Translations under genes and position numbers: made by a program
DNA from: PVC group bacterium
GTDB taxonomy: Bacteria; Verrucomicrobiota; Kiritimatiellia; CAIKKV01
Direction of reading: 5' to 3'
Length of the DNA stretch: 64,000 nt
Assembly (NCBI GenBank): GCA_945898015.1
Contig: CAMDGM010000006.1
Location: 11,032 to 75,031, forward strand
Notes under the pieces: model-generated
What the model was told of the DNA's origin: nothing
Databases searched by the model: none
Seen by the model: only the letters and a program-made list of their open reading frames with translations
In this document: positions 4,359 through 32,135 of the stretch, in pieces
How positions within the stretch are numbered: the first letter of the stretch is position 1
Layout: every line of letters begins with the position of its first letter

Positions 4359-4451
4359 CCCCATCCTCCCTTCGCTCCACACGATTCGCTCCCCAGCCTA
4401 CGCCGCCGCTCCCCCGCACGCAAGCGGGTTCATCACTCGCCATTCATCACG

Positions 4452-5038
4452 GGCGCATCTCTGAGTATTGCACGTTCTCTTTGCGATTGTGTTGTCGGTT
4501 GAGCTGAGTTCGGCGTTTCGGCCGCGGGCTGGTGCGCGCTTTTGCGCGCTACGGGGCTCCGGCTGGATGAGCCGGGACCCTTATTCCACGTCTCATCGCC
4601 GTCGCCCCGGATCATCGCAAAATCGCATCACCATCCCGCGGCAGATCGAAACGCCGCCCCCGGAACGCCTCGCGCGCCCGCGATCTGTCGATCAGCTCGG
4701 GCGGCGCGCGACTACGGCTTCCATGAGGAAGCCCGTTCAGCAAAAGCAGGACATTCAACGGGCTATTCTTGGGGAACCAGCTCGCGCGCCGCCCGAGGCA
4801 CATCGGCAGATGGCCAGGGCGCGCGATGGCTCGGGGGGGGTGCCGTTTCGATCAGGCGGACCTGGCCGAGTTGATTTTGAGGCGTAGGCGGTTGACGGCG
4901 ATGCGACGTGGCCTATAGGCCCGGCGCATCTAGCCGGAAACCGGATACGCCCAAAAGCAGCCGGCAAGGTCCGCCCGAAACGGCGCTCCCAGCTCAACCG
5001 ACAAAACAACCGAAAAATATCAAAATCAGAGATGCGCC
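4452..5038. repeat. copy A of a ~360-bp GC-rich noncoding element, with a 172-bp internal extra module and 13-bp terminal inverted repeats
   Basis: 4456-4538 plus 4711-4986 align with 31677-32037 at roughly 95% identity by eye. GGCGCATCTCTGA at 4452-4464 is the exact reverse complement of 5026-5038. Many perfect short helices are present. Confidence 0.8.
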
Positions 5039-5074
5039 TGTTCCTCACTCACATTTCTCAACATCGCCTCGCCC

Positions 5075-5103
5075 TTGACAGCGCCCAGCCCGCCCCGCAT
5101 ACT
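5075..5103 (+). promoter_or_regulatory. candidate sigma70-type promoter for the nagB-like operon
   Basis: TTGACA (5075-5080), a 17-nt spacer, then CATACT (5098-5103), about 60 nt upstream of ATG 5167. Based on consensus matching only. Confidence 0.25.
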
Positions 5104-5166: not shown

Positions 5167-6102
5167 ATGGCTGAATTCACCTATACCCCCTCCCAGTGGA
5201 TCCCCTTCCGCGACCAGAAGGTCCTCAACCGCGTCCGCCGCATCAAGCGCAAGGATATCACCCGCCACAAGAACCCGGAGCTCAACATCCAGGTCATCCC
5301 CGACGACATGGCCGAATTCGTCTGGCTCAACGACATGTTCTACCGCATCAAGACGGCCATGGACGCCAACAAGACCTGCGTCCTGATCATGCCCAACCCG
5401 GCCCACACCTACGTCAAGCTCGCCCTCATGCTGAACCGGTTCAAGGTCAACTGCCGGAACCTGTGGATCTTCATCATGGATGAATATGCCGACCAGGACG
5501 GCCGCATCGCGCCCGACACCTGGAAGCTCGGCTTCATGTACTCGTTCAAGAAGTTCTTTTACCAGACCCTCGACCCCAAGCTCCGCCCGCCCGAAAAGCA
5601 GATCTGCGGGCCCACCACCCAAAACGTCAAGGACTACGGCCGCATGATCGCGGACAAGGGCAACGCCGACGCCTGCTACAGCGGGCCCGGCTGGACCGGC
5701 CACCTCGCCTTCATCGAACCCGACGCCCCCGAGTTCGCCGCCGGCAGCCTGGAGGAATGGATGACCTACGGCCCCCGCGTCGTCACGCTCAGCCCGTTCA
5801 CCATCGCCCAGAATTCCCTTCACGGCTTCTTCGGCATGAGCGGCGATCTGGCCGCCGTCCCGCCCCGGGCCTTCACCATCGGCCCCGCGCAGGTCAAGGC
5901 CGCCCGGTACCGCATGGACATGAGCGCGATCACCACCTGCGGCACCAATGTCTCCTGGCAGCGGTTCATCACCCGCCTCGTCTGGCACGGCCCCGTCACG
6001 CCGCGCGTCCCCACCTCCCTCCACCAGCTCCTGAAGACGGACGTTTTCATCTCCGAAAGCAACGCGGCCGACATCGCGCCGCTTTGGAACCGGGGTTATT
6101 AA
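5167..6102 (+). CDS. glucosamine-6-phosphate deaminase/isomerase (NagB)-like protein with N-terminal extension
   Basis: FIMDEYADQDG (DEY motif) and GPGWTGHLAFIEPD (GxxGHxAFxEP motif) of the NagB/6-phosphogluconolactonase superfamily. AGGAG sits 6 nt upstream of ATG 5167. The ORF-track start at 5032 lies inside the repeat element. Confidence 0.65.
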   Translation: MAEFTYTPSQWIPFRDQKVLNRVRRIKRKDITRHKNPELNIQVIPDDMAEFVWLNDMFYRIKTAMDANKTCVLIMPNPAHTYVKLALMLNRFKVNCRNLWIFIMDEYADQDGRIAPDTWKLGFMYSFKKFFYQTLDPKLRPPEKQICGPTTQNVKDYGRMIADKGNADACYSGPGWTGHLAFIEPDAPEFAAGSLEEWMTYGPRVVTLSPFTIAQNSLHGFFGMSGDLAAVPPRAFTIGPAQVKAARYRMDMSAITTCGTNVSWQRFITRLVWHGPVTPRVPTSLHQLLKTDVFISESNAADIAPLWNRGY

Positions 6103-31666: not shown

Positions 31667-31676
31667 CCGCCAGGCT

Positions 31677-32040
31677 CATCTCTGAGTTTTGGCACGTTCT
31701 CTTTGCGATTGTGTTGTCAGTTGAGCTGAGTTCGGCGTTTCGGCCGCGGGCTGGTGCGCGACTACGGCTTCCATGAGGAAGCCCGTTCGGCAAAAAGAAG
31801 GACAGTCAACGGGCTGTTCTTGGGGAACCAACTCGCGCGCCGCCCGAGGCACATCGGCAGATGGCCAGGGCGCGCGATGGCTCGGGGGGTGTGCCGTTTC
31901 GATCAGGCGGACCTGGCCGAGTTGATTTTGAGGCGTAGGCGGTTGACGGCGATGCGACGTGGCCTATAGGCCCGGCGCATCCAGCCGGAAACCGGATACG
32001 CCCAAAAGCAACCGGCAGGGGACGCCCGAAACGGCGCAAC
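31677..32040. repeat. copy B of the ~360-bp GC-rich noncoding element (single-module form)
   Basis: Aligns with 4456-4538 plus 4711-4986. It begins 11 nt after the AraC stop codon. The right-hand inverted repeat is not recognisable here. Confidence 0.8.
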
Positions 32041-32135
32041 CGGAACAACCCGCCACCAACCTCAACCCTGCGGCTCGGACAACGCCTCGCCTTACAGACA
32101 TTCACACCGGACTGACAACGAATCGTGTCAAACGT

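Follow-up and report, generated by a model that had tools for sequence, protein, structure and literature searches.

A structured intergenic element that occurs twice in the window, that is, the whole 64,000-nucleotide stretch of DNA analysed here (C6:11032-75031 of a 72-contig, 3.29-Mb MAG, G000, with a completeness of 89.6%), very likely represents a family of mobile DNA. We interpret its first copy, copy A, as a non-autonomous MITE that descends from a Mutator-like DDE insertion sequence of the ISKra4 group, and the second, copy B, as a rearranged relic of the same design. The earlier, sequence-only reading of this DNA had left the choice between a structured RNA gene and a MITE-like element. 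The MITE half of that proposal is borne out by terminal inverted repeats, a 9-bp target duplication, the lack of coding capacity and dozens of relatives in the genome, as well as by an autonomous ISKra4-family relative with the same termini and by a fixed distance between tip and promoter. The other half, a stand-alone RNA gene, is not supported, given the lack of an Rfam match, the lack of an orientation bias and the location of the unit inside transposon ends. The family is new and the kind of mobile DNA is already known; it is not a new RNA gene.

The two copies are ~95% identical, non-coding and strongly structured. An alignment of 4456-4538 plus 4711-4986 with 31677-32037 gives ~16 differences, next to the approximately 15 counted previously, and the 13-bp inverted repeat reported at the ends of copy A (GGCGCATCTCTGA at 4452-4464 and TCAGAGATGCGCC at 5026-5038) is exact. 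However, the repeated unit is not the ~360-bp element that had been proposed but a core of ~230 nt (4755-4996 in copy A and 31806-32047 in copy B), whose flanks are interchangeable modules. Similarly, the 'extra' 172 bp of copy A (4539-4710), which had been taken for an insert, are the body of a second, inverted core, as follows from the covariance-model cores at 4500-4739 on the minus strand and 4755-4996 on the plus strand. Copy A is a head-to-head dimer of two such cores, 589 bp in length (4451-5039), with inverted ends of ~290 bp. The helices listed by the sequence-only reading are all present, including GGCTTCC-ATGA-GGAAGCC (4716-4733), TCGCGCGCC...GGCGCGCGA and GGCC-TATA-GGCC, but GCCCGTT...AACGGGC is not a helix of a single unit: what had been read as part of the core is in fact the junction between the two head-to-head cores.

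From left to right, copy A is preceded by a target-site duplication, ATTCATCAC (4442-4450), which agrees at 7/9 positions with its right-hand counterpart GTTCCTCAC (5040-5048), both lying directly outside the tips. The tip of the left terminal inverted repeat, GGGCGCATCTCTGAG (4451-4465, plus strand), is identical to that of 14 identical elements at contig ends and is followed by 'm1', a ~55-nt 3' tail module of the inverted core (4466-4506, minus strand; the length is counted with the tip at 4451-4465). This tail also occurs after cores in C8, C20, C28 and C38 and at the contig ends of type 1 described below, and its inner end overlaps flank columns of the model match that starts at 4500. That match is the inverted core (core copy 1; 4500-4739, minus strand; model R1 201.8 bits, E 1.5e-47), which holds the supposed 172-bp insert and the palindrome at 4716-4733 (H0) and is ~70% identical to core copy 2. 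A short spacer (4740-4754) separates the 5' ends of the two head-to-head cores, a layout that recurs with gaps of 30-50 bp at five further loci (C3, C5, C6, C7 and C18). Core copy 2 (4755-4996, plus strand; model R1 226.5 bits) combines H0, H1 (TCGCGCGCC...GGCGCGCGA) and the 150-nt H2 with its apical GGCC-TATA-GGCC. It leads into a 3' tail and the right terminal inverted repeat tip (4997-5039, plus strand, ...AATCAGAGATGCGCCt), the reverse complement of the left end; the outermost part, 5025-5039, is the complement of GGGCGCATCTCTGAG and is counted among the type-A tips discussed below. Copy B has the design of copy A, with the inverted core deleted to its last ~15 nt and with another right-hand tail. 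Its terminal repeat is found on the left side only (31672-31686, two mismatches), where alignment with copy A delimits a left end (31672-31760, minus strand) made up of the degenerate tip AGGCTCATCTCTGAG, included in the tip list as C6 42703, the tail m1 and the last ~15 nt of the deleted inverted core. The core of copy B (31806-32047, plus strand) scores 230.2 bits with model R1. Beyond it, similarity to copy A stops after CGAAACGGCGC, and the right tail (32048-32105, plus strand), similar to those of C62 and C31, is what is left of a different module, the 'linker', and has no terminal repeat.

The core itself consists of a small 5' hairpin (H0), a 9-bp stem (H1) and a ~150-nt hairpin (H2), such that the folding strand reads 5'-H0-H1-H2-tail-tip-3'. 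The H1 stem (TCGCGCGCC/GGCGCGCGA) is nearly invariant, with a difference of 0.5-1%, and its apex is variable, four copies having a C(TTCG)G loop instead; H2 features conserved internal loops, tandem G·A pairs among them. RNAalifold predicted 59 pairs from 54 copies in the genome, 39 of them with double compensatory changes. When 63 copies drawn from six genomes were aligned on the basis of the model, 97.7% of the pair cells proved to be paired, as against ~40% in slid controls with the 3' partner moved by 1-3 columns, and 40 of the 59 modelled pairs show changes on both sides; none of 500 shuffles reached the observed values. The density of conserved helices is accordingly much stronger than had been claimed. 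Further, G·U pairs are found in 90 cells spread over 21 columns, where they reach high frequencies (30, 10, 9 and so on), compared to 19 cells with A·C mismatches, which affect only one or two cells per column, and the minimum free energy of the copy B core (-144.3 kcal/mol, z -8.2 versus shuffles) is better by 16 kcal/mol in the modelled strand than in its complement (-128.5). From the G·U excess and this energy difference it follows that the fold is single-stranded and strand-specific; the folding strand may act as RNA or DNA. In pairs of close copies, H2 stems and H2 loops differ alike (2.4% and 3.2%, respectively), and these pairs yielded no direct sign of selection on stems in individual inserted copies. 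This implies that the compensatory changes were fixed along subfamily ('master') lineages and not in resident copies, although hairpin-templated repair could be an alternative source of such changes.

BLASTN, suggested earlier as a means of counting copies genome-wide, together with an nhmmer profile, recovered ~71 core copies above 100 bits in the genome, 56 of them full length, a repetition far beyond chance; their identity to each other is 70-80%. By a crude GC3-based gene map, the cores are intergenic, at most clipping the ends of predicted ORFs, and display no bias in orientation relative to the neighboring genes, their settings being divergent (13), tandem (27, with 12 sense and 15 antisense) and convergent (3). 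Many lie at contig ends, which indicates that they have broken the assembly. Their flanks are mosaics in which several 5' modules and 3' tails replace one another and a ~125-nt linker also occurs, and the cores also come in pairs, six of them head-to-head, including copy A, and several tandem. Head-to-tail core arrays with the ~125-nt linker were seen in G000 at C31:146-722, C5:97657-98217, C28:2-578 and C44:25647-26290, the linker module having two hairpins of its own, GGCGGCGACGGCGCGCCGCC and CCGCCGCACTCAGTGCGGCG.

Beyond this genome, model R1 detected the core throughout the genus, with 30 to at least 52 copies in every one of its five genomes. The same model gave seven copies for the sister genus and a single one for G037, picked up weak H2-like hairpins in two further families, and detected no copies in ~195 other genomes of the class. 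Across members of the genus the cores are 72-80% identical. The genes flanking copy B, when compared at the DNA level with those of genus members (E <1e-20), gave no match save one, namely 208 nt of a DnaJ gene at 71% in G004, and at that site (G004:C178) the gene order differs and a core is lacking. Orthologous empty sites sought in genus members gave none that was usable, as the species are too diverged at the DNA level. The single copy in G037, a genome of another family, is a lone high-scoring core (L170, G037:C483, 1501-1785; 161 bits) that begins right after the stop codon of a gene and whose H2 is interrupted in its 3' arm by ~60 inserted nt; bin contamination or horizontal transfer may account for its presence. 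In a distant Kiritimatiellia family, an H2-like long hairpin (L156, G208:C85, 1501-1728, minus strand; 61 bits) has the GATTTTTCGATGATGGCG...AGCGCGAAAAAGAC motifs in common with the core, so the hairpin module may predate the genus.

The affinities of the termini emerge most directly from the contig ends. Fourteen of these stop ~147 nt inside identical repeats, every one of which ends in AACTCAGAGATGCGCCC. They fall into type 1, with the 3' half of the core and its tail (six ends and a seventh, 98%-identical copy in C38), type 2, with a different inner module (five ends), and type 3 (two ends). Four pairs of contig ends carry perfect duplications: GCCCTGTGG at C42/C40, TTGCCGATG at C49/C20, CGGCGGCGA at C53/C51 and CGATCCGC at C1/C72. 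These paired duplications indicate that the element at the contig ends has inverted tips, generates 8-9-bp duplications and was recently active. Flanking target duplications, which the sequence-only reading had named as something to look for, are thus present both at copy A (7/9 positions) and, in perfect form and 8-9 bp long, at the four contig-end junctions. We also noticed that the inner 80 nt of the type 2 ends (GGATAGCGCCGACCGTCAAGCCGGGCTGTTCC...CCTCTCAGC) constitute a separate small intergenic repeat family rather than a gene; it is found at the G000 contig ends C8, C20, C40, C51 and C72 and in at least 14 places in G002, and is common to the genus, often at contig starts. The tips counted in the genome are 24 of type A and 16 of type B. 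Complete single-core MITEs, 365-644 bp long, have inverted repeats of 19-20 bp, and a second tip variant, AATCGCAGATGCGCCC, delimits ones of 365-475 bp; two elements (C55 and C50) retain duplications at 7/9 positions.

Other genera of the order share the conserved tip, which there also bounds a complete insertion sequence. This 1621-bp element (G037:C637, L041) has tips at 179-204 and 1774-1799, the left one base off GGGCGCATCTCTGAG and the right one exact, and a 9-bp duplication, GAGGGAATT. Its 433-aa transposase has NF033572 (ISKra4) as by far its best family (E 5.8e-50; 170.6 bits, under the curated NCBIfam cut-off of 205 bits). A second small ORF of ~65 aa lies between the transposase gene and the right tip of L041 (1561-1757, plus strand), and in the genus the core appears to hold the place of this ORF in the interval between transposase gene and tip. 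The same tips are seen in a 158-bp MITE of G024. A short core belonging to the type 1 subfamily lies 35 nt downstream of a decayed ISKra4 transposase gene in G002:C78 and has the strand in common with it, an arrangement that places the core between transposase gene and tip in the parent element. A tblastn search of the MAG with the G037 transposase found no ISKra4 transposase, and the decayed fragment in G002:C78 is the only one in the genus; accordingly, we infer the mobilizing enzyme. The interior of the 14 identical elements was recovered neither by exact-word searches of the MAG or tblastn with the G037 transposase, nor from 40 relatives, metagenome scans or an exact-protein look-up. Finally, ~19 of the 71 cores lie within 400 nt of a recognizable tip and 35 are without any. 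These tip-less cores end in other tail types, suggesting that many cores may spread or persist by another route.

Elements of the ISKra4 group are known to insert upstream of sigma-A promoters, with 13-17 bp between the promoter and the junction of inverted repeat and genome (Guerillot et al. 2014, PMC3942029). The tips studied here likewise target promoters: a TTG is found at exactly offset 27 beyond the tip in 7 of the 24 type-A tips (P = 1.8e-8; 9e-7 when corrected for 50 offsets), an offset that equals the 9-bp duplication plus 18 nt. At six of these seven, a TAnnnT-type -10 box lies 17-18 nt downstream of the -35 hexamer, the C21 tip having TTCAAT. The 27-nt spacing is one helical turn longer than the published 13-17 bp (PMC3942029); for the G037 element the distance to the -35 box is 17, and for some type-B tips it is 13-17. 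The promoter-facing end can be either end of the element, with no orientation bias relative to the targeted promoter. In copy A, the left tip stands 27 nt from the predicted -35 box of a PIG-L-family deacetylase gene, whose predicted promoter (4395-4423, minus strand) has -35 TTGCGT at 4423-4418, a 17-nt spacer and -10 TAGGCT at 4400-4395. The right side faces a promoter-like TTGACA-17-CATACT (5075-5103, plus strand; 10/12 matches, 0.1 expected in shuffles) of the gene starting at 5167; this adjoining 311-aa gene (5167-6102, plus strand) gave no Pfam match at E up to 0.01.

Based on these observations, we posit that copy A arose as two long ends, each comprising a tip, a ~55-nt tail and a ~230-nt hairpin core, that were fused head to head without a transposase gene. 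The parent insertion sequence would have the core on the sense strand, after the 3' end of its transposase gene and ahead of the tip. Acting in trans, a transposase of ISKra4 type would bind the GGGCGCATCTCTGAG tips, cut the target with a 9-bp stagger on the upstream side of a sigma-70-type -35 box and insert the element there. H2 would be kept by selection on transposition-competent lineages and not on the host, and may provide a single-stranded platform (RNA or DNA) or an end-protecting structure, with the invariant H1 stem being a probable sequence-specific recognition site.

Several other interpretations of the core merit consideration. That it is a decayed protein-coding gene is extremely improbable. 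ORFs of 97-139 aa do overlap the element on both strands, but a Pfam search of every ORF in it gave no match, five of the six substitutions in the minus-strand ORFs shared by copies A and B are non-synonymous (the same five replacements had been counted earlier), 1-2-nt indels between copies are many, with frameshifts across 54 copies, and conservation tracks base pairs, not codons. Taken together, these lines of evidence refute a pseudogene remnant for practical purposes and uphold the absence of coding that had been claimed. More deserving of attention, if still very unlikely, is a functional non-coding RNA, either a cis-acting one that stabilizes or insulates mRNAs or a trans-acting small RNA, which the transposon would disseminate and the fold of which would be selected for its benefit to the host. 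Very strong covariation across six species, the strand-specific excess of G·U over A·C, the C(UUCG)G tetraloop that replaces the H1 apex in four copies and the 72-80% identity of cores between species whose flanking genes hardly match at the DNA level are all consistent with such a role. Against it, Rfam returned no match to the whole window at gathering thresholds and, at E up to 10, nothing beyond miRNA and snoRNA matches that fell below threshold, in line with the earlier lack of fit to RNase P, tmRNA, SRP, 6S or riboswitches. The cores are also unbiased in orientation relative to both neighboring genes and the targeted promoter, no conserved promoter or U-tract terminator of their own was seen, stems are no more constrained than loops in recently diverged copies, and the copy numbers and contig-end breaks resemble transposon bursts. 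An RNA with a different allegiance, a guide scaffold of the omega-RNA or bridge-RNA type that serves an RNA-guided nuclease or recombinase of a transposon, would account for a long structured non-coding module that neighbors both a transposon end and the 3' end of the transposase gene, and for the many ORF-less copies with a superficial likeness to HEARO/omega-RNA elements. Its likelihood is nevertheless close to nil: none of the five genus genomes has the TnpB domain (PF07282), for which control genomes gave matches, and this led us to reject the TnpB omega-RNA idea; the Rfam scan, whose 4227 families presumably cover HEARO, produced no match of that type at E up to 10; and inverted-repeat tips with 9-bp duplications are typical of DDE transposition, the associated transposase being a DDE Mutator-like enzyme. 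This reading is largely refuted.

The strongest of these competitors, unlikely as it is, regards the core as an independent REP/REPIN-like hairpin repeat spread by some other enzyme, such as a 340-aa Y1/HUH protein, or by recombination; it would have lodged repeatedly in MITEs of ISKra4 origin, copy A being one that carries it as mere cargo. This would accommodate the aforementioned 35 tip-less cores, the at least four types of tails and tips that accompany cores, and the tandem arrays with ~125-nt linkers. Genes with a Y1_Tnp domain are present in all five genus genomes; of the 20 such matches in G002, one (G002:C39) lies at a distance of ~140 nt from a core. The G·U excess would also suit a single-stranded substrate, as for HUH enzymes. 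In G000, the Y1_Tnp (IS200-like) matches are at C14:79554-80561, C34:24544-25572, C6:102143-103168 and C13:26588-26854; three of them are full paralogues of ~340 aa that bear a long extension at the C-terminus, and the C13 match lies in a shorter open frame. However, none of these four genes is flanked on both sides by cores at distances of up to 5 kb, and none adjoins related modules. Moreover, the 230-nt unit far exceeds a REP (20-40 nt) or a REPIN (~100 nt), a conserved tetranucleotide cleavage tag was not identified, one core directly follows the transposase gene within the remnant of an insertion sequence, and the tip-less copies may be old or rearranged MITEs.

Returning to the derivation from an ISKra4-group element, it is conceivable, though unlikely, that the core is more than passive cargo, that is, a strand-specific, selection-maintained structured module needed by this Mutator-like transposon lineage. 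As a folded 3'-UTR or end structure, it might then recruit the DDE transposase or regulate it, or else shield the targeted promoter, with H1 as an invariant protein-recognition stem and H2 as a freely covarying scaffold. If this is true, a DDE transposon family that is not known to rely on a structured nucleic-acid cofactor would have one in the core, and if the hairpin is necessary for transposition, bacterial Mutator-like transposons would have a structured-nucleic-acid requirement. Independently of this, the MITE family explains a conspicuous intergenic class in a little-known genus of uncultured freshwater Kiritimatiellia and accounts for most of the assembly breaks there, and its recognition keeps core loci from being mistaken for new RNA genes. 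The family is also a further, well-documented example of ISKra4-type MITEs that home to promoters, here at a different spacing of 27 nt, and it offers an unusually clean natural data set for covariation, with 40 covarying pairs in one 150-nt hairpin.

In a broader context, this family finds parallels in several known systems. The modular intergenic repeats of bacteria, such as Correia/NEMIS in Neisseria, BOX and RUP in Streptococcus pneumoniae, ERIC and BIME/RIME, occur in tens to hundreds of intergenic copies with mosaic modules and strong predicted hairpins, and some of them are mobilized in trans by the transposase of an insertion sequence. Our family is comparable to these in intergenic copy number, mosaic modules and hairpins, but it bears no sequence relation to them, has a longer core with unusually rich compensatory variation, and is confined to one Kiritimatiellia genus and its sister. 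With the REP/REPIN elements and their RAYT (Y1/HUH) enzymes it has in common strand-specific hairpin repeats, inverted doublets and the occurrence of Y1-domain genes in the genus; unlike them, it has a 230-nt unit rather than one of 20-100 nt, no RAYT gene flanked by cores, and DDE-type tips with 9-bp duplications. The Mutator-like elements of eukaryotes (MULEs) possess long inverted ends (100-500 bp) with subterminal binding sites and create ~9-bp duplications. The transposase superfamily, the ~9-bp duplications and the long inverted ends are common to MULEs and the present family, which differs in being bacterial and in having long ends that are themselves internal hairpins; binding of transposase to the core would be hypothetical here. 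The closest counterparts are the ISKra4-group elements (p-MULT 4 of the prokaryotic Mutator-like DDE transposons; PMC3942029). The ends of copy A depart from these in carrying a ~230-nt conserved hairpin module, the -35 box is 27 nt from the tip as opposed to the published 13-17 bp (PMC3942029), the orientation relative to the promoter is not fixed, and the cognate transposase gene is not in the assembly. At the same time, the two agree in the terminal sequence of a complete ISKra4-family element, in 8-9-bp target duplications and transposase-less derivatives, and in insertion at a fixed distance upstream of sigma-70-type promoters.
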